A stretch of DNA of 64,000 nt from an uncultured bacterium. GTDB taxonomy: Bacteria; Babelota; Babeliae; Babelales; Babelaceae. How positions within the stretch are numbered: the stretch's first letter is position 1; each line of letters starts with the position of its first letter. The stretch lies in the NCBI GenBank assembly GCA_963819815.1, contig CAWFXL010000001.1:256001-320000 (forward strand), in the 5' to 3' direction. Below the pieces are notes generated by a model. That model saw only the letters and a program-made list of their open reading frames with translations. It made no database searches and was not told where the DNA came from. Positions 3,216 to 13,325 of the stretch are shown here, in pieces. The position numbers were made by a program, and so were the translations under genes.

Positions 3216-4280
3216 ATGCAAATTCAGCTTATTCTCTCTTTTTCAGTATTGTGTGCATTGCTGAGTACTATTTCTGAGCTTCGAGCTGAGTTGACGAAAA
3301 GTCCCATCTATACGACGCAACCACGGTGGACTCAGGAGCTTGATCTTCCCTCCATAGAACAAGAATTACAAGAGGGTGATGTGGCATCTATGAAGCCGAT
3401 GTCGATCGTCCTTAGTGAGATGGGCAAAAAAGTAGATTTTGATAATGAGGTATTCTTGGTGGAGCTCAGGTCTGGTCTCAAGGGTGTCTTCAAGTCAGGA
3501 GATGATCGCTTTGCTGAAGTAGCTGCATATAGAGCCGATCAGTATCTTGGACAGCGCTTGGTCCCGCCGACGGTTTTTAGAACATTAGCGGGAAAAGAGG
3601 GCAGTCTTCAACTGTTCATCGAAACCGATATAGATCTTCTTGAAGATCCTTCACCTTTGTCTTGCGTTTCTGAACGTGAGCTGCTCCAGATGAAACTCTT
3701 CTCGTTTGTCTTTGGCCAATGGGATATTAATCTAGGAAACCGTCTTATTCAGAAGACCGAGGGTCGTTATTACCTTGTACTTATAGATAATGCCGGTATG
3801 TATAATCGACTACAGGTACGTTATGGTGAATATCCCTTTGTCCTCCGAGCATGGCGCTTAAGTGACTATCAGGAGGAGAAGCGCGCATTTCCCTTTGATG
3901 AGCCTCAAGAACTTCGTAATGCTTCCTGTGAAGATGCCAAGAAGCTGTTTAGAGATTTTTTTGAGCCTGAGGAGCTTGAACGCTTTTGCAAGAGAAATTG
4001 TCGGAGACTGAGGTATTGTATTTGGAATAATGCACTCTGGATCCAATATTTTGCTGATAATCCTGAATATACACCATCATACGTATCTGAGTATCCTCAA
4101 TACGATTTACAGGTCTATAAAAATCTTACAAGCGAGCACCTCATAGGCTTTTGGAATGAGCCATATGAGAGTTCCCAGCGTATTCATATTGAAAAGCTCA
4201 TAGCGGATACTCTTGAGCGTCGGGACCAACTTCTTGCAGCGCAGGAAATTCACGAAAAAGCCCATCTGATCATTTCTTAG
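3216..4280 (+). CDS. Exported PI3/PI4-kinase-like (atypical kinase fold) protein
   Basis: Signal peptide; GVFK, EVAAY..D..LG..LVPPT, GSLQLF, WDINLGN.LI, LIDNAG. Confidence 0.7.
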   Translation: MQIQLILSFSVLCALLSTISELRAELTKSPIYTTQPRWTQELDLPSIEQELQEGDVASMKPMSIVLSEMGKKVDFDNEVFLVELRSGLKGVFKSGDDRFAEVAAYRADQYLGQRLVPPTVFRTLAGKEGSLQLFIETDIDLLEDPSPLSCVSERELLQMKLFSFVFGQWDINLGNRLIQKTEGRYYLVLIDNAGMYNRLQVRYGEYPFVLRAWRLSDYQEEKRAFPFDEPQELRNASCEDAKKLFRDFFEPEELERFCKRNCRRLRYCIWNNALWIQYFADNPEYTPSYVSEYPQYDLQVYKNLTSEHLIGFWNEPYESSQRIHIEKLIADTLERRDQLLAAQEIHEKAHLIIS

Positions 4281-4400
4281 ACCACTTCCTAGATCTCTTG
4301 CAAGAATTCAATTAGAAAAACTATTGAAAATAGTATTGCTTTTTTATTACAATGAAGGAGATAGAACTATAATATTCCTCTAAACTAAAAGGAGATTTCT

Positions 4401-4799
4401 ATGAACATCAAAAACACCCTAGTGGGTATGTTAATGATTATGTTGAGTACTGCAGCTGTTACACAATGCAGTGAAGGGAAAAAACAAGAGCAACGTGCTG
4501 AAGAAGCTAAAGCCCTGAAGCCAGGTAGAGGCTTAGGTATGGGACCTCTAGGTTTGAGAGCTCGAGCAATGGCTGCTGAAGCTGCCGCCAAAGGTAAAGA
4601 AGTAGAAGAAGAAGCAGTTGAAAAAGGAAAAGTAGCACTGTCAAAAGTAAAACAAGCTCCACCTCTTCCTCCAAAACGTGCAAAAAGAACAGCTGAAGCT
4701 CAAGCAGCTGCTGCAGCAGAAGAACCTGAACATGAAGAATCATGGGGCGAAATGTTAGCTCGTCATGGTGCAAGCGTTAATGAGCCATTTAGGTGCTGA
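4401..4799 (+). CDS. Exported low-complexity protein, array member 1 (PPLPPKR)
   Basis: AAGGAG RBS; MNIKNTL signal peptide; paralog of downstream genes. Confidence 0.85.
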   Translation: MNIKNTLVGMLMIMLSTAAVTQCSEGKKQEQRAEEAKALKPGRGLGMGPLGLRARAMAAEAAAKGKEVEEEAVEKGKVALSKVKQAPPLPPKRAKRTAEAQAAAAAEEPEHEESWGEMLARHGASVNEPFRC

Positions 4800-4905
4800 T
4801 TAATCTGACTAACTGGATAGCTAAGTGAAAGTAAAGACTCAATAAGAAGGTCTAGGAATGCTAAAAAATATCCCTATCTTATTGATAACATTAAAGGAGA
4901 ATTCT

Positions 4906-5307
4906 ATGAACATCAAAAATACCCTCGTTGGTATGTTACTCATTATGTTAAGTACTGCAGTTGTTACGCAATGCAGTGAAGGAAAAATGCAAGAGAAAAA
5001 AGCTGAAGAAGCTAAAGCTCTCAAGCCAGGTAGAGGTTTAGGTATGGGACCTCTAGGCTTAAAAGCTAGAGCAATGGCAGCTGAAGCTGCTGCGAAAGAG
5101 GAAGAAGAAGCAGCACCTGAAAAAGGAAAAGTAGCTCCTTCAAAAGTAAAACAAGCTCCACCTCTTCCACCTAAACGTGCAAAAAGAACGGCTGAAGCTC
5201 AAGCGGCTCCTACAGCAGAAGAAGCTGAAGCTGAAGAATCATGGGGCGAAATGATGTCGCGTCATGCTGCAACGTTAGCGAGCCAATTTGGTCATTGGGT
5301 AGATTAA
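4906..5307 (+). CDS. Exported low-complexity protein, array member 2 (PPLPPKR)
   Basis: Start moved to MNIKNTL after AAAGGAG; close paralog of member 1. Confidence 0.85.
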   Translation: MNIKNTLVGMLLIMLSTAVVTQCSEGKMQEKKAEEAKALKPGRGLGMGPLGLKARAMAAEAAAKEEEEAAPEKGKVAPSKVKQAPPLPPKRAKRTAEAQAAPTAEEAEAEESWGEMMSRHAATLASQFGHWVD

Positions 5308-5407
5308 TCTGACCAACTGGACAGATACGTCAAAGTAAAGACTCAATAAGAAGGTCTACGAATGCTAAAAAATATCCCTATCTTATTGATTAATTAAAGG
5401 AGAATGT

Positions 5408-5971
5408 ATGAATATCAAAAATACCCTCATGGGTATGTTACTGATTATGTTGAGCACTGTAGCTCTTACCGAGTGTGGTAAAGGCGGGTGCAAAGGTGGT
5501 GTTTGTGCTCTAAAGCCTAACAAGCAGAAACAAGCCCAAATGATGCAGCGTGAACAAGCAGCAAAAGCCCAAGCACAAGCTCAAGCGCTACAAATGCAGG
5601 CAGCGCGTGCCAAGCAAGCTCAAATAAGGCAGGCAGCGCAAGCTCGTGGTGCTGAAGTTCGCGCAGGTATAAGGGCTAAAGCATTGGCTGCCAAAGAAGC
5701 GATGAAAGGTGCCGCTAAACCTACAGTAATGACTGCTACGCCCAAAGCGTCTGAATTAGCAAAAGCCAAAGGTATGATGGAAGCAAAAGCGGTGACTACC
5801 GAAGAGGCGAAAGCTGCGCTCGCTAGTGAAACTCCACCTCCACTTCCTCCAAAACGTGCAAGAAGAATAGCTGAAGCACCAGCAGCGCAAGAACAACCAG
5901 CTCCGCGTGGAGAAACGTGGGGAGAAATGTTTGCTCGTCATGGTGAAACGTTAATGGGTCATTCTGGGTAA
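5408..5971 (+). CDS. Exported low-complexity protein, array member 3 (CGKGGCKGG, Q/A-rich, PPLPPKR)
   Basis: Shared signal peptide, RBS and C-terminal WGEMFARHG. Confidence 0.85.
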   Translation: MNIKNTLMGMLLIMLSTVALTECGKGGCKGGVCALKPNKQKQAQMMQREQAAKAQAQAQALQMQAARAKQAQIRQAAQARGAEVRAGIRAKALAAKEAMKGAAKPTVMTATPKASELAKAKGMMEAKAVTTEEAKAALASETPPPLPPKRARRIAEAPAAQEQPAPRGETWGEMFARHGETLMGHSG

Positions 5972-6073
5972 GAGTAATCTGACCAAACTGACAATTAAGT
6001 GAAATTAAAGACTCGAGGGTATATGAACTCAAAATACCCTCGTATCTTATTGATCCAGTAAAAGGAGAATGTT

Positions 6074-6574
6074 ATGAACATCAAAAATACCCTCATGGGC
6101 ATGTTGCTGATTATGCTGAGCAGTGCAGCTCTTACCGAATCTAGTCAAGGCAATGCCAGAGGTGCAAGCGCAGCTAGAATCACAGCCACTGCTTTGAGAG
6201 GCGCAACAATACGTGCTCGTACTGGGCAAGTTGCTGCTCCGCAAGAAGCCCAATCAGGGAGTGCCCAAGGTATGAAGGCTACAGCAGTCCCTGCTCAAGC
6301 AAGTGCTTCATCAACCATGGGATCTGAAAAGGCAGCATTAGGCAAGGCCGGAGAACCTATGATGCAAGCAAAAGTAGTAGTGCCAGAAGCTCAACAAGAA
6401 GCGATACCGGTGGCAAAAGAAAAACAGGCTCCACCTCTTCCTCCAAAACGTGCGAGAATGGTACCTGTAGCCCCTGCACCTGTGGTTGAACCACAAGCGG
6501 AACAACCAGCCCCGCGTGAAGACACCTCGGGAAGCTTGTTTGCGCGTCATATGAGTTATTTTTTTGGAGAATAA
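6074..6574 (+). CDS. Exported low-complexity protein, array member 4 (PPLPPKR)
   Basis: Shared signal peptide, RBS, PPLPPKRA and FARH tail. Confidence 0.85.
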   Translation: MNIKNTLMGMLLIMLSSAALTESSQGNARGASAARITATALRGATIRARTGQVAAPQEAQSGSAQGMKATAVPAQASASSTMGSEKAALGKAGEPMMQAKVVVPEAQQEAIPVAKEKQAPPLPPKRARMVPVAPAPVVEPQAEQPAPREDTSGSLFARHMSYFFGE

Positions 6575-6627
6575 TCTGAGCAAGCTGACAAATCAGTGAA
6601 AGTAAAACCTCAATAAAGGAGAAAATT

Positions 6628-7119
6628 ATGAACATTAAAAATACCCTAGGTATGTTATTAATTATGTTAAGTACTGTTGCTAGTACCCAGTGTGGTAAAG
6701 GCGGCTGTAAAGGCGGAAGTTGTCCGGCAAAGTCTGGTAAAAGCCAACATGCTCTCATGATGCAGCGTGTACAAGCGGCCAGAGCAATACAAGCTCAAGC
6801 GCAAGCTCGACAAATGCAAGTGGGTGGTAGTACCCAAGCTCAAACAAGGCAAGCAGAACCAACACGTGTAGGGGTACGTGCAGGTATGGGTGGTCGTGTA
6901 ATGCAAGTTCAAGCAAGGCCAGCATCAGCATCGACTTCAAGTTCTCGTTCAACCTATGGATCATTGCAATTAAGACCTGCAGGAACGGCGTCTGAACTAG
7001 GCAGAAGTACAAGTTCTAGTGCTACAACAGGAAGTACTCGAGGATCGTTAACTCAATCGAGAGAATCAACGGCATCTGAAGAGTCTGAATCAAGTGGTGC
7101 AGCTGAAAGCAAGGACTAA
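6628..7119 (+). CDS. Exported low-complexity protein, array member 5 (CGKGGCKGG, S/T-rich, ESKD end)
   Basis: Shared signal peptide and RBS. Confidence 0.85.
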   Translation: MNIKNTLGMLLIMLSTVASTQCGKGGCKGGSCPAKSGKSQHALMMQRVQAARAIQAQAQARQMQVGGSTQAQTRQAEPTRVGVRAGMGGRVMQVQARPASASTSSSRSTYGSLQLRPAGTASELGRSTSSSATTGSTRGSLTQSRESTASEESESSGAAESKD

Positions 7120-7133
7120 GTTAGGAGTTTTTT

Positions 7134-7487
7134 ATGAATGTAAAACATATCTTAGTAGGTTTGTTACTGATCTTGATGAGCACGGAAGCTATTACGGAAT
7201 GTAATGGTGGTCGTTCAAGAAAAGCTCAACAACAGCAACAATGTACCGGAGAAAGCTGCTCATTAAAAGGTGGCAAGAAAGGGAAAGGTTATCGTGGCCG
7301 TCATATGAGACGCCATGGTAAGCGCCATGGAGGCTGGGGTATGAGAGGTCGTGGTACGCAAGGTCAAGGCATGAAAGTCCAAGCCGTGAAAGCCCAAGGC
7401 ACGAAAGCCAAAGCTACTGAGTCTACTGAGTCAGAAGAAGAAGAGTCTTCTACCGGCAACGAAGAAGCAGTTGAAAGTAAAGATTAA
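7134..7487 (+). CDS. Exported basic/acidic low-complexity protein, array member 6 (ESKD end)
   Basis: MNVKHILVG...ITEC signal; AGGAG RBS. Confidence 0.8.
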   Translation: MNVKHILVGLLLILMSTEAITECNGGRSRKAQQQQQCTGESCSLKGGKKGKGYRGRHMRRHGKRHGGWGMRGRGTQGQGMKVQAVKAQGTKAKATESTESEEEESSTGNEEAVESKD

Positions 7488-7510
7488 TCATAATACTTAG
7501 GAGAATAACT

Positions 7511-8005
7511 ATGAATTCAAAATTAGCATTCGTAGGCCTCTTAGCACTTATGCTAGGGGCCACGGAACTTATCGATGCACGTGGTGGCGGTGGTGGACGT
7601 GGCGGTGGTGGACGTGGCGGTGGTGGCGGCGGCCGAGGCGGCGGCGGTATGCATGGTGGTGGAATGCGTGGCCATGGTGGTGTTAGCCATATGGGCGGAC
7701 GTCATGTAGGCGGAGGTCGCCATGTTAGCGGCGGACGTCATGTAGGTGGCGGTCGACATGTTGGCGGCGGACGTCATGTAGATGGTGGTCGTCATGTTGG
7801 CGGAGGTCGCCGTGATGGTGGACGTCACTTAGGCGGTCGTGGTATTCGCAGTGGCTCATACTGGGGCCCGTATCTGTTGGGTGGTCTTCTTGTAGGCATA
7901 CCCCTCCTAAACTATGAGCTAGGATCACCTTATGATGGTTGCTACTATGACTTCGATGGAGACTTAATCTGCCAAATGGGCGATGAATGGTACTATGCGT
8001 CATAG
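7511..8005 (+). CDS. Exported glycine-rich protein with RGG and GGRHV repeats, array member 7
   Basis: Signal peptide, AGGAG RBS, tandem GGRHV(G/S/D) hexapeptides, Tyr/Asp-rich tail. Confidence 0.8.
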   Translation: MNSKLAFVGLLALMLGATELIDARGGGGGRGGGGRGGGGGGRGGGGMHGGGMRGHGGVSHMGGRHVGGGRHVSGGRHVGGGRHVGGGRHVDGGRHVGGGRRDGGRHLGGRGIRSGSYWGPYLLGGLLVGIPLLNYELGSPYDGCYYDFDGDLICQMGDEWYYAS

Positions 8006-8020
8006 AAATGAATGAGACTT

Positions 8021-8051
8021 AAAGATGGAGGCTTCGGTCTCCATCTTTTTT
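8021..8051 (+). terminator. Rho-independent terminator ending the array operon
   Basis: aaagatggaggc-ttcg-gtctccatcttt followed by T run. Confidence 0.85.
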
Positions 8052-8200
8052 GATGTAGAGCATTTATTTCTTCGTCCTTTTCTACCCATCTTGACCAAAC
8101 AAAAAAAATCTTATTCTATAAAATACTTGATTAATCATATTTGTACTTAATAAACTAAGAGAGATAGAGTATAATTACCAAATAAGTAAGGAGCATTAAT

Positions 8201-8512
8201 ATGAATGCAAAGTATTTACGAGCAGCTCTTTTGCTTGTTGTTTTAGGGATGGCAAGCATTACTGAATGCGGCCGTAGTTGCAGTCGGAGTTCAAGCCGTG
8301 GACATAGACATTCAAGTCATAGCCATGGGCGTAGGTGTTGCCGAGGTGGCGGCTATGGCTGGGGTCCAAGAGTTTATGGAGGCTTTGGGTACTATGATCC
8401 TTATTTTAACGGATACGGCTATGGATACGCCCCTTGGGGATATGGTTATGGGTATGGTCCTTATGCCTATGAGCCCGTTGGCTGCTCATTTGGGTTGAAT
8501 GTCTGTATTTGA
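8201..8512 (+). CDS. Exported Gly/Tyr-rich small protein related to the array
   Basis: MNAK...ITEC signal; GYG repeats; upstream GAGATAGA..TATAAT motif resembles that at 4358-4373. Confidence 0.75.
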   Translation: MNAKYLRAALLLVVLGMASITECGRSCSRSSSRGHRHSSHSHGRRCCRGGGYGWGPRVYGGFGYYDPYFNGYGYGYAPWGYGYGYGPYAYEPVGCSFGLNVCI

Positions 8513-9868
8513 TGACAGCTCTTTTACGAGCTTTTTGAAGTGTCTTCCACGTTCTTGATAATCTTTATAAAGGTCATAGCTCGCACCTGAGGGTGAAAGG
8601 AGAATGACCTCATCCTTTTTGGCTTGCTGTAGGCAGGCTTTGACTGCCTCATGAAGAGTCTCATGAGCCGATGTGGGGATGCCGTATTTTTTGCAGCCAG
8701 CCTCGAGCTCTTTGGCCTCTTTTCCAAAACATACTGTTGCTGCAATATAGGGCTTAAGTAAACCGATGAGCGCTGCTCTATCAACCCCTTTACTGATACC
8801 ACCAAGGATAAGATGGATGGGGCGAGGTGCTAATGTTGCTACAGCAGCTCTTGTCGCTTCAACAATAGTGGACTTTGAATCATTATAAAAGAGTTTACCC
8901 TCATGAGATCCCACAAATTCAATGCGGTGTTCAAGTGGTGAAAACTCTGGTACTGCAAAAGCATGAGAGGACAGTATACCTAGCATATCTGATACCGTAA
9001 GAAGTATGAGCCAGGTTTCATGGAGCAGCGATTCTCCACGTTGGGCGAGGCTAGAACGAATGGGTAAGGTTGTTGTAGCAAGCTGACCATTCTTTAGACG
9101 TCTACGTGTGAGCGTGGTTCCTTCTAAGGTATACAAGTCATCACCTTCCTGCAGCAATTGAAGCGTCTCAGGTGATGGCTCATCTTGAGTAAAGTAGGTA
9201 CAAGGACGGTTAGTCAGAGCACGTACTTGTGGAGCAAGGTTAAGTGGTAGGAGCATCTTCTGTTCAGGGCGTTGATGCCTAAAGATGTGTGCTTTCGCTT
9301 CAAAATAAGCTTCCAGAGTACCATGCCGATCAAGATGATTGGCATAGAGATTCGTCATAATGGCAAGATCGGGCGCAAAGGTATGCGCAAACTCAAGTTG
9401 GAAGCTTGAGAGCTCCAAAAGGCCATAGTCAACGGTATCTTGGCTAGGAAGAAGATCAAGCATAGCGGTACCTATATTACCGCCTGTGGCGACCGAGAGA
9501 TCGTTTGCTTGAAGAAGTGAAGTAAGCAGGGTAACTAAGGTTGTTTTTCCTAAGGAGCCGGTAACGGCAATGAGCGGCTTGTGCCATCGTGGACCAAAGA
9601 GGGTAAGCTCGTGGACCATCTTGTGCTGGTACTCCTGTGCTTGGGTAAGAGCTATCCCAGGACTCGGGACAAGGAAGTCATTGTCTTTGAAGAATGCTTC
9701 TTGTTCATGAGGCGCATAAGAGCGGACCTGGTAGGTAGTAAGAAATGATTCTTCTTCAGCAGTTAAAGGACGCGCATCGTATACGGAAAGTGAATGCCCT
9801 TGCGCTTGCAGAAAGCGTATTGCCGATCTGCCAACAACTCCAAGACCCCAAATGCCATATCTTTTCAT
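8486..9868 (-). CDS. murD: UDP-N-acetylmuramoyl-L-alanine--D-glutamate ligase
   Basis: GLGVVG, SPGI, TGSLGKTT, GGNIG, ELSSFQLE, NHLDRH, HRIE, NDSKST, LLSPSGASYD..Y.ERG. Confidence 0.95.
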   Translation of the reverse strand: MKRYGIWGLGVVGRSAIRFLQAQGHSLSVYDARPLTAEEESFLTTYQVRSYAPHEQEAFFKDNDFLVPSPGIALTQAQEYQHKMVHELTLFGPRWHKPLIAVTGSLGKTTLVTLLTSLLQANDLSVATGGNIGTAMLDLLPSQDTVDYGLLELSSFQLEFAHTFAPDLAIMTNLYANHLDRHGTLEAYFEAKAHIFRHQRPEQKMLLPLNLAPQVRALTNRPCTYFTQDEPSPETLQLLQEGDDLYTLEGTTLTRRRLKNGQLATTTLPIRSSLAQRGESLLHETWLILLTVSDMLGILSSHAFAVPEFSPLEHRIEFVGSHEGKLFYNDSKSTIVEATRAAVATLAPRPIHLILGGISKGVDRAALIGLLKPYIAATVCFGKEAKELEAGCKKYGIPTSAHETLHEAVKACLQQAKKDEVILLSPSGASYDLYKDYQERGRHFKKLVKELSSNTDIQPK

Positions 9869-10212
9869 AGAAGTACCTTTTTGTGGAGGAATGCTTTTCT
9901 TAAGTATACTAGCCTGCACAGAAAAGTGAATCGATAGATCCATTCATACGGGTATTCTTACATGGGCGAACCCATAGAGGAGTTTATAGGGTATACCATT
10001 AATGGCAGTATTTATGCAAACTGGTGAAATATATATTTTTCAGTAGAGTCTTCAAGTTGTATACAATAATGAGGAAAGGGGAGTATTTCAAAAAACTCTG
10101 ATTGCAAGATCGAGTTCTTTGGAGCTATGGTGGCTTGATGAGTTGTTTGGAAGCACAATAATTCAATGATTAAAAATATGCAGGATGAGATATCCCACCC
10201 TGCATCAGATTC

Positions 10213-10628: not shown

Positions 10629-10915
10629 CGAAAGTCTCCTTAACGTAAATAGGGTGTATAACGTAGGGATACTACTTCGTTTAGAGAATTTTTTCAAATT
10701 GTGTTCATGTTTTTGGCATGGATTATTTCAGTCGAACGGTTGAAGATATATGGTGCTTTCATCGAGCTATTAGATGGGAAGTATTTTGCAAGGAGGGGAC
10801 TTTGCTGTAAAATGCGTGAAACTATTGTGTCCATAAAGAGAATTTTGATACTCTTCCGATGGATGCGAAAATGGCGTATCAGCTTATACATTTTATACAT
10901 TTAAAAGGAAGACGA

Positions 10916-11623
10916 ATGAAGAAACACTTCGTAATATTACTTATCATCTGGTCGGCTTCTATTATTGCACAGGTTGGTCCTCAACCATTGTATATCTCAA
11001 ATATTACGCTTATCCCTTCATGTGGGAATACTGCAACGATATCGGTGACTGCTGCTGGTGGTCAACCAACGCTGGATGGTTTCTATACTTACCAGATAGG
11101 TTCTCCGATAAATGAAATTCGGGTTGCAAAAACGGTCACCTTTACTGCTACCAGTGGCTCAATACCCATTTTGCTTATAAGCGATTCTTCATCGAACGCT
11201 CTTAATATAGATCAAGTAGCTTCTTTTACGCCATCTCAAACCACCTCAGTAAGCATGGATGTCAGTACATTACCGCTTGGTAATGGAAAAGGATGTATCC
11301 TTTTAAGTGTTACTAATCCTGGAGGATTAGCAACCAATCTGGTTACTTTTGGTTTGCGGGCTTTTACTCCTACTGATTTGGAGACTCCTTCCGATATCAA
11401 GCAGGTGAAAGAAGCCCCTTTCACGGCTACATTTCTTTCTTTGCCAAGCGCTTTACTTAATGCTTCTGTTGTTAATATCGATGATGGTTGTGCTGAAGGC
11501 TCCACTTTCAATTTCATATTTCCCTTTCCTCAGGGATTGGGAAATGCTCTGAAAGCGTATATATTTAACAAATATTGTAGCTGCCCTCTCAGTAGTTCTG
11601 CGATATCTGTTCCTATACCTTAG
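10916..11623 (+). CDS. Exported beta-rich protein, paralog A (C-terminal AYIFNKYCSC)
   Basis: Signal peptide MKKHF...; strongly similar to 12585-13325. Confidence 0.8.
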   Translation: MKKHFVILLIIWSASIIAQVGPQPLYISNITLIPSCGNTATISVTAAGGQPTLDGFYTYQIGSPINEIRVAKTVTFTATSGSIPILLISDSSSNALNIDQVASFTPSQTTSVSMDVSTLPLGNGKGCILLSVTNPGGLATNLVTFGLRAFTPTDLETPSDIKQVKEAPFTATFLSLPSALLNASVVNIDDGCAEGSTFNFIFPFPQGLGNALKAYIFNKYCSCPLSSSAISVPIP

Positions 11624-12584: not shown

Positions 12585-13325
12585 ATGAAGAAGCTTATCA
12601 TACTACTCGCGATTTATTCAGCATCGATGATTGCTCAGGTTGGTCCTCAGCCATTATATTTCTCAAATATTACCATTACTCCTACACCAGGATCATGCGA
12701 TGTAGCTGTAGGTAAAGCAACTGCAACTATATCGGTGACTGCCGCGGGTGGGCAGCCAGCAGCAGATGGTTCATATATCTATATAGTGAATGGTAATACC
12801 AATCAGGCCATAGTTGCAAAGACTGCTACATTCACCGCTCTTGAAAACGAAGCTGTTAGCGTGATAGTAGTCGATGCAGGGCAGAATACTTTATTCGTAT
12901 TTGGAGGCACACCAGTAGTTATGTTTAAACGAAGTGCGACAACATCGGTGAGCATGGATGTGGTTTCGTTACCTCTTGGTAATAATCCTGGTTGTTTCAG
13001 GTTAACCGTTATTAATCCTGCTGGTAAGGCAACCGGTACGGTAAACTTTACAGCCCAATCCGTAACTCAGAATGAATCATTAACTGAAACTATCCTTGAG
13101 CAAACACTCCAGGCACCGCCCTTTACTGTCACATTTCCTTCTTTGCCGGCTGCATTTATTATTGCCGAGGTTGCGGTTGCAGATGATTGCGGATCGGGCG
13201 GTTCATCCACCTTCAGCTTTAACTTTCCTTTTCCACAAGGATTTGGAAATGCTTTGAATGCATATATATTTAACAAATATTGTAGCTGCCCTCTGAGCAG
13301 TACAGCAATAGTGATACACCCATAA
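12585..13325 (+). CDS. Exported beta-rich protein, paralog B (C-terminal AYIFNKYCSC)
   Basis: Signal peptide; AQVGPQPLY and FPFPQG.GNAL.AYIFNKYCSCPLSS shared with paralog A. Confidence 0.8.
   Translation: MKKLIILLAIYSASMIAQVGPQPLYFSNITITPTPGSCDVAVGKATATISVTAAGGQPAADGSYIYIVNGNTNQAIVAKTATFTALENEAVSVIVVDAGQNTLFVFGGTPVVMFKRSATTSVSMDVVSLPLGNNPGCFRLTVINPAGKATGTVNFTAQSVTQNESLTETILEQTLQAPPFTVTFPSLPAAFIIAEVAVADDCGSGGSSTFSFNFPFPQGFGNALNAYIFNKYCSCPLSSTAIVIHP

Follow-up and report, generated by a model that had tools for sequence, protein, structure and literature searches.

In a 64,000-nucleotide stretch of the genome of an uncultured bacterium of the phylum Dependentiae (Babelota), hereafter called the window, eight small genes lie in tandem at positions 4401-8512, and the first four of them encode predicted exported proteins that share a proline-rich hexapeptide, PPLPPK. 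This motif is real and under selection, and the four genes that carry it form a lineage-restricted family. As to what the motif does, we favor the reading that genes 1-4 encode motif-mimic effectors, which would bind class II SH3 domains of the host via PPLPPK, and we put its probability at about 45%. A preliminary description of the region had seen a single cassette of such mimics in all eight genes. This view is too wide: genes 5-8 carry no motif, gene 7 belongs to an older family also present in Bradyrhizobium, and gene 8 lies past a terminator. In other words, the array is not one uniform cassette, and the motif family comprises four genes. The described layout does stand, namely eight co-oriented open reading frames (ORFs) on the plus strand, from 4401-4799 through 8201-8512, which according to the ORF list of the window are 103-187 amino acids long and each preceded by an AAGGAG-type ribosome-binding site. 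The assembly amounts to 1.64 Mb in two contigs and is 88% complete, and the MurD protein of the locus is 93% identical to that of its nearest named relative, a Candidatus Dependentiae.

The motif was analyzed in 12 copies of genes 1-4 from three lineages, eight of them available as DNA (this genome and its sister) and four as protein only. PPLPPK is invariant in all 12, the sister and the third lineage included, as one had expected of orthologues. The longer PPLPPKRA, originally described as invariant, is found in nine copies; P0019 and P0020 read PPLPPKPA and P0002 reads PPLPPKRP, such that the residue after the Lys is R in ten copies and P in two. Of 85 ungapped columns of the mature proteins, nine are invariant, namely one Gly, the hexapeptide and an RH pair, and a run of six among nine such columns arises in 7 of 200000 permutations, a test devised post hoc. 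Around the motif, identity between paralogue groups (45 pairs) is 0.27 in the middle of the protein, 0.42 in the linker and 0.66 in the tail. Among 6006 ORFs of the genome PPLPPK occurs four times, always within the array, and when each mature sequence is shuffled, PxLPxK turns up in 0.2-0.4% of cases. The genome-wide counts of PxLPxK and PxxPx[KR] given below, like the codon-usage ranking, exclude G000:C1:1-50000, a segment of this genome with a GC content of 0.61-0.66 against 0.42 elsewhere on the contig, which is probably a contaminant joined to the assembly.

The codons tell the same story. Over the eight copies with DNA, whose pairs are not independent, the proportion of nonsynonymous differences (pN) is 0 in the motif, 0.44 in the eight codons before it, 0.22 in the eight after it and 0.18 in the tail, while the synonymous proportion (pS) of the motif, 0.35, is similar to that of the leader (0.41) and the tail (0.35). 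As the codon changes in the motif are silent only, selection acts on the peptide and not on the DNA, and the same silent changes rule out a DNA- or RNA-level cause of its constancy. The earlier impression of an invariant motif amid diverging flanks is, consequently, one of purifying selection. Relative to the sister, the ratio of nonsynonymous to synonymous rates (dN/dS) is below 1 for all eight genes (0.44, 0.23, 0.19, 0.67, 0.23, 0.25, 0.26 and 0.13 for genes 1-8; 0.15 for murD). One could still argue that the array expanded recently and is largely dispensable, its copies drifting and the constancy of the motif reflecting short divergence or gene conversion. Indeed, of 261 phylum genomes just two have genes 1-4, to which a single additional protein set is to be added, the motif codons are identical in several paralogues, and gene 4 combines the highest dN/dS with a broken tail. 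However, pN falls to 0 in the motif only, seven of the eight genes have a dN/dS of 0.13-0.44, and the motif is kept in the third lineage, whose full-length matches are 41-48% identical to gene 3. For the motif itself, the comparison of pN and pS largely refutes drift, and we regard this explanation as very improbable.

What would such a motif bind? A constant proline motif amid drifting flanks, together with its match to a motif of influenza virus, makes proteins 1-4 likely baits for host adaptors. In particular, residues 212-217 of the influenza A NS1 protein are the very same PPLPPK, which the available portions of PMC10612106 and PMC2645404 present as a class II SH3 motif and a ligand of the N-terminal SH3 domain of Crk and CrkL, in agreement with the classification of PxLPxK put forward before. 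The consensus PxxPx[KR] or PxLPxK, as given in the same portion of PMC10612106, is matched by all 12 copies. In NS1, too, the hexapeptide sits in a flexible region and is followed by basic residues (PMC10612106, in part). NS1 differs in being a viral protein with an animal host, so the likeness is convergent, and a protist host may have no Crk. The bacterium's own genome (88% complete) gave no match to the SH3_1 domain.

A bacterial parallel is SemD (CPn0677) of Chlamydia pneumoniae, which, going by the accessible part of PMC11344771, combines, within a disordered region, a proline-rich ligand of SH3 domains with an amphipathic helix. Both cases involve an intracellular bacterium and a proline-rich SH3 ligand flexibly joined to an amphipathic helix. 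Still, SemD as described there has 382 amino acids, a folded core, WH2 domains and an N-terminal helix, and type III secretion is listed for the related CPn0678, whereas the proteins of genes 1-4 have 130-217 amino acids, a Sec leader and a C-terminal helix and come as four tandem paralogues. Profile and protein-database searches found no sequence homology between SemD and the array proteins. EspF and EspFU are related motif-mimic effectors. The mode of action of proteins 1-4, if any, is one of a known kind, that of motif-mimic effectors, while the family is undescribed.

According to the SH3-ligand reading, the mature proteins 1-4 would leave the cell through a type II-like secretin system or in vesicles and would reach the cytosol or the vacuole surface of a protist host. 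There, the class II SH3 domains of actin or endocytic adaptors would be the targets of PPLPPK, the C-terminal amphipathic helix would attach to a membrane or to a second partner, and the variable middle would serve as a spacer. The host-dependent setting assumed from the outset is well founded, as Dependentiae are described as intracellular parasites of protists in the part of PMC12172432 available to us. In the excerpted text of PMC4776705 a type II system is reported for all TM6 genomes, and that of PMC6561590 mentions many signal-peptide ORFans in Dependentiae and, for Chromulinavorax, vesicle release and a share of 44% signal-peptide proteins. The present genome contains three clustered secretins and two ATPases of the type II secretion/type IV pilus kind.

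The leaders themselves have a basic n-region, a hydrophobic core and, in the aligned copies, a small residue at position -1 (C, S or A). This residue, number 23, is preceded by Q or E; it is S in gene 4 and in gene 6 of the sister, A in P0002 and P0003, and Cys in all six copies of genes 1 and 2. By the usual rules of the signal peptidases, a lipobox follows [LVI][ASTVI][GAS]C with an invariant Cys. The Q or E before the Cys, and the replacement of the latter by S or A, led us to reject the proteins as lipoproteins and substrates of signal peptidase II, although the copies of genes 1 and 2 may conceivably have an odd lipobox. Since the Cys gives way to A or S in orthologues, we infer cleavage by signal peptidase I, the option that had been preferred from the start.

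A number of points weigh against this picture of SH3 baits. By itself, a Sec leader takes a protein to the periplasm only. Type II systems usually carry folded substrates, and neither FHIPEP (type III) nor VirB4 had a match in the 88% complete genome. Crk is reported, in the part of PMC5043372 at hand, from animals and a choanoflagellate, so the literal match to a Crk ligand need not hold for an amoebal host. The consensus PxxPx(0-2)RP, given for the SH3 domain of Dictyostelium Abp1 in the accessible section of PMC3708727, is matched by one of the 12 copies, P0002. In a relative, PPLPPK also stands at the N-terminus of an integrase (L068), a protein in which it cannot serve to bait a host. The 12 copies share one ancestor, meaning that the motif arose once, and in other exported-like proteins of the genome PxLPxK is seen once against 2.75 expected. 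Gene 4 in the window has a decayed tail, namely DTSGSLFARH without the Trp and then a 13-nucleotide deletion relative to the sister. Finally, the array neighbors 7 and 8 look like ordinary envelope proteins. The looser PxxPx[KR], by a crude signal rule, counts 59 against 40 expected in exported-like ORFs and 54 against 46 in the others.

Another possibility is that the proteins do reach the host but are read there differently: as a basic nuclear-import signal, as a dibasic site (KRxK/R) whose cleavage frees the C-terminal helix, or by a proline reader of the WW or GYF type. PPLP is a group II ligand of WW domains, and K[KR]x[KR] is the consensus of a monopartite nuclear localization signal. 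Eight of the 12 copies have K-[KR]-x-[KR] after the prolines, and R-x-[KR]-R is found in genes 1-3 of the window. However, P0019 and P0020 have P in place of the R after the Lys, and gene 1 of the sister has T where the next basic residue would stand. The monopartite signal, absent in these three copies, is not a conserved column and was rejected. With the prolines, the Leu and the Lys all kept while the basic residues vary, PxLPxK fits better than a basic cluster, and we consider readers other than SH3 domains rather improbable.

Proteins 1-4 follow a common plan of signal peptide, variable middle rich in Ala, Gln, Lys and Glu, PPLPPK, linker and amphipathic W-x-E-M-x-x-R-H tail. The consensus of the tail is E-[ST]-W-x-E-M-x-x-R-H-x-x-T-L-x-x-H-L-G, its Trp lying 26-36 residues after the start of the motif and kept in 11 of the 12 copies. 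A tail of this type, previously ascribed to members 1-4, is present in genes 1-3 and lost with the Trp in window gene 4, while the sister orthologue of gene 4 retains it. The hydrophobic moment of the tail, 0.48-0.57, is equaled by 1.5-10% of shuffles, so that the tail is moderately amphipathic. Gene 3, the one member of genes 1-4 that was modeled, has no globular fold in AlphaFold (predicted template modeling score 0.26). Its model consists of a leader helix, a confident Ala/Gln helix at residues 39-100, the motif in coil between segments with a predicted local distance difference test score below 50, and a C-terminal helix at 171-184. Gene 7 is predicted to be disordered except for a three-stranded C-terminal sheet. 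The label of small disordered proteins fails for the long helix of gene 3 and the sheet of gene 7. What finds no support is the idea that the acidic Trp tail is a second motif of the Arp2/3 type, given that the Trp lies 16-19 residues before the C-terminus and opens a predicted helix. An activator of the WASP type (WH2-C-A) was rejected on the same grounds, the Trp being followed by 16-19 predicted helical residues, and no WH2 was found at a Pfam E-value of 0.1 or below.

Genes 5-8 are built otherwise. Genes 5 and 6 have the leader of genes 1-4, a CxGxxC loop in common with gene 3 (where it reads CKGGxC) and an acidic end; genes 7 and 8 are rich in Gly, Arg and Tyr and have a terminal Cys pair. 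When 4031 N-termini of the genome were scored with a leader profile derived solely from genes 1-4 plus orthologues, genes 5, 6, 8 and 7 took ranks 5-8 (scores 82, 75, 44 and 38; next 31). Judging by their leaders, genes 1-6 are clear paralogues, and genes 7 and 8 are weakly related, slightly above background, which confines the once general claim of related leaders mainly to genes 1-6. Within the array, DNA repeats reveal the joint duplication of leaders, motif, tail and spacers, and the first half of gene 5 is 72-74% alike to gene 3 in DNA, from which it follows that modules were shuffled. The gene 7 C-terminal profile has matches in six of nine other genomes of the genus, each beside murD; in G002 and G012 the murD locus has Gly-rich exported ORFs without a match to this profile, in G006 it has none, and in G007 murD was not found in this survey. 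A second, longer paralogue of gene 7 lies at G000:C1:408127-408846 (L114:931-1650). From this distribution we infer that gene 7 is an old resident and that genes 1-6 were added on its upstream side within a single lineage.

Could the whole array, then, encode envelope or coat proteins of the infectious particle? In that case, a layer in the periplasm or at the surface would be cross-linked through the Cys pairs and the Gly/Tyr/Arg stretches, and PPLPPK and the tail helix together would act as a stiff linker or as the place where a bacterial partner docks. The association of the gene 7 family with murD speaks for this, as do the constancy of the CKGGxC/CxGxxC loop of genes 3, 5 and 6 in all seven copies, the terminator apparently common to genes 1-7, and the fact that Sec leaders are the only export signals present. 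What is more, the Bradyrhizobium protein P0026 has the same build as gene 7 (E-value 1.7e-4). Gene 7, and loosely gene 8, resemble exported Gly/Arg-rich proteins of Proteobacteria and Dependentiae in leader, RGGG repeats, Gly/Tyr stretch and CYxDxxGxxxC. By their features (signal peptide, ARGGG, C-terminal Cys pair) these proteins are BA14K-like, and genes 1-6 share the leader only. As a family assignment, BA14K (PF07886) was rejected: neither Pfam nor NCBIfam gave a match for gene 7, gene 8 or their relatives, and the sole hint of it is an atlas lead below threshold (0.89, 26% of members). Against the envelope explanation, a Cys pair is present in genes 3, 5, 6, 7 and 8 and missing from the mature parts of genes 1, 2 and 4, a linker has no need of six exact residues, and integrases and unrelated exported genes also gather around murD. 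Nor does codon usage single the genes out as abundant (ranks 83-695 of 1301), though this is a weak test and uninformative as such. All in all, we deem an envelope role for the entire array unlikely, though it is the strongest competitor of the SH3-ligand reading.

Under the SH3-ligand reading, the array would stem from a gene for an exported protein next to murD that was repeatedly duplicated and shuffled, and genes 5-8 are best explained as passengers of the same expansion, or its ancestors, and not as SH3 baits. The fuller proposal, that mini-effectors combining an SH3 ligand with a membrane helix and exported through Sec and secretin evolved de novo by duplication of an envelope-gene leader in a lineage of Dependentiae, is quite conceivable, and we advance it tentatively. 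If true, it would offer the first sequence-level handle on how Dependentiae, a phylum seemingly without type III and type IV machines, rewires actin or endocytic adaptors of protists. So far, host-manipulating proteins of Dependentiae, which are obligate parasites of protists, have been inferred mostly from ankyrin repeats, and no tested effector is named in the literature examined. That literature, which excluded subscription journals and supplements, yielded no account of the array or of SH3 mimicry in the phylum. The motif, being under selection, could point to the host and the hijacked adaptor, and the motif proteins would test whether a Sec and secretin route can deliver unfolded effectors. 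In addition, the locus records the birth of new exported proteins through leader duplication and module shuffling. That said, the significance is limited by the narrow distribution, and the function is predicted from sequence.

In the databases searched, genes 1-4 are confined to this genome, a sister and a single additional set of proteins. An alignment of all eight genes against 41 genomes recovered the full array in this genome and the sister (G001) only, with one weak 45-residue match at a contig end of G009. A motif-and-tail profile scored strongly in the same two of 261 phylum genomes, with E-values of 0.027-0.049 in seven others, and had six matches among 1.84 billion protein representatives, of which five belong to the family and one is a repeat protein that lacks the motif. 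The third lineage consists of P0002, P0003, P0019 and P0020, each on a 3826-nucleotide contig and presumably from one locus. No described family had been recognized earlier, and none emerged now: the array proteins have nothing near cut-off in Pfam or NCBIfam, nor do seven of the eight in PHROGs; a profile search of the PDB gave two chance matches (E-values 0.067 and 0.92), and the ESM Atlas no usable match for gene 1. None of 224 pattern stretches in viral contigs was confirmed. In the JGI metagenomes two of 522 were confirmed, a sister-type locus and an unrelated protein sharing the motif only. The motif DNA pattern matched in 56 of the 261 phylum genomes. Of 30 pattern loci inspected, 28 lie outside the array, and as most are short or off-frame, a phylum-wide enrichment was rejected; they include two clear signal-peptide proteins, the integrase and an enzyme-like ORF with PPFPPK. 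The former two (L079:1453-2445, minus strand; L086:793-1845, plus strand) are unrelated proteins from other Dependentiae families and carry PPLPPK in low-complexity regions. A 557-amino-acid protein at L062:409-2082 (plus strand) combines PPPLPPKR with many Tyr motifs (NPLY, EPVYASI, GIYESL, SIYAVP) and looks like an independent motif-mimic scaffold; its contig, with 25% GC and Ser/Thr kinase genes, may come from a giant virus or a protist.

As regards the individual genes, all on the plus strand, gene 1 (4401-4799) encodes 132 amino acids with a signal peptide at 1-23, PPLPPK at 4659-4676 and the W..RH tail; its last ten codons are frame-shifted relative to the sister by one extra base, real or an assembly error. 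Several housekeeping genes are fragmented in this assembly, and therefore single-base shifts may be errors. Gene 2 (4906-5307; 133 amino acids, 82% identical to gene 1) was started at 4906, an ATG after a Shine-Dalgarno sequence, instead of 4858, and has PPLPPK at 5158-5175 and the W..RH tail. Gene 3 (5408-5971; 187 amino acids) has the motif at 5837-5854, between its predicted Ala/Gln and tail helices, and gene 4 (6074-6574; 166 amino acids), whose leader ends in T-E-S, at 6431-6448. Of the motif-free genes, gene 5 (6628-7119; 163 amino acids) has a gene-3-like N-terminal half, a Ser/Thr-rich middle and the acidic end AESKD, and gene 6 (7134-7487; 117 amino acids) a leader, the CxGxxC loop, a basic Gly/Arg/His stretch and the end VESKD. 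Gene 7 (7511-8005; 164 amino acids) has a signal peptide, GGGR/HVGGGR repeats and a C-terminal CYYDxxGxLxC sheet. Gene 8 (8201-8512; 103 amino acids) has a leader ending in T-E-C, a Ser/Arg/His stretch, a Gly/Tyr-rich half and a Cys pair, and overlaps the 3' end of murD (8486-9943, minus strand), the convergent and conserved landmark of the locus.

A strong intrinsic terminator after gene 7 (8021-8048, plus strand; folding z -4.82) makes it likely that genes 1-7 form one transcription unit and gene 8 a separate one. Two overlapping sigma-70-like matches ahead of gene 1 (4324-4373) and a promoter-like site ahead of gene 8 (8147-8175; 10 of 12 matches), all on the plus strand, are weak, as the six matches of the region are not above the 5.4 expected from shuffles. 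No RNA data set carrying the array was listed, and the one DNA match is a contig 90-95% alike, like the sister. The four duplicated intergenic spacers (4800-6627, plus strand) have the form TAATCTGAC...GTGAAAGTAAAGACTC...AAGGAGAA and are partly hairpin-forming. A structured RNA in them is unsupported, with no Rfam family and folding z values of +0.9 to -2.6. The spacer between genes 3 and 4 contains a hairpin at 6015-6050 (GAGGGTAT / ATACCCTC), the right arm of which resembles a decayed leader start, while the left arm could also pair with leader codons of gene 4.

Directly upstream of gene 1, at 3216-4280 (plus strand), lies a gene for a signal-peptide protein with what we take to be atypical kinase-like motifs (TIGR03843 at an E-value of 2.9e-4, far below cut-off); each of the 10 genus genomes has a member of its family, which is split in G001. 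Beyond murD, 10859-11623 and 12585-13325 (plus strand) encode two paralogous exported beta-rich proteins that end in YIFNKYCSCPLSS and have no family above cut-off. Both here (118-450) and in several relatives (L049-L056), the gene of a tyrosine recombinase is situated within a few kb of murD, amid lineage-specific exported genes, and the locus is therefore an insertion hotspot. Elsewhere in the genus, genes near murD encode small, Cys-rich exported proteins (CPxG..Y..L..AKKxCG), as at L051:7538-8100 (minus strand) and L053:3710-3940 (plus strand).

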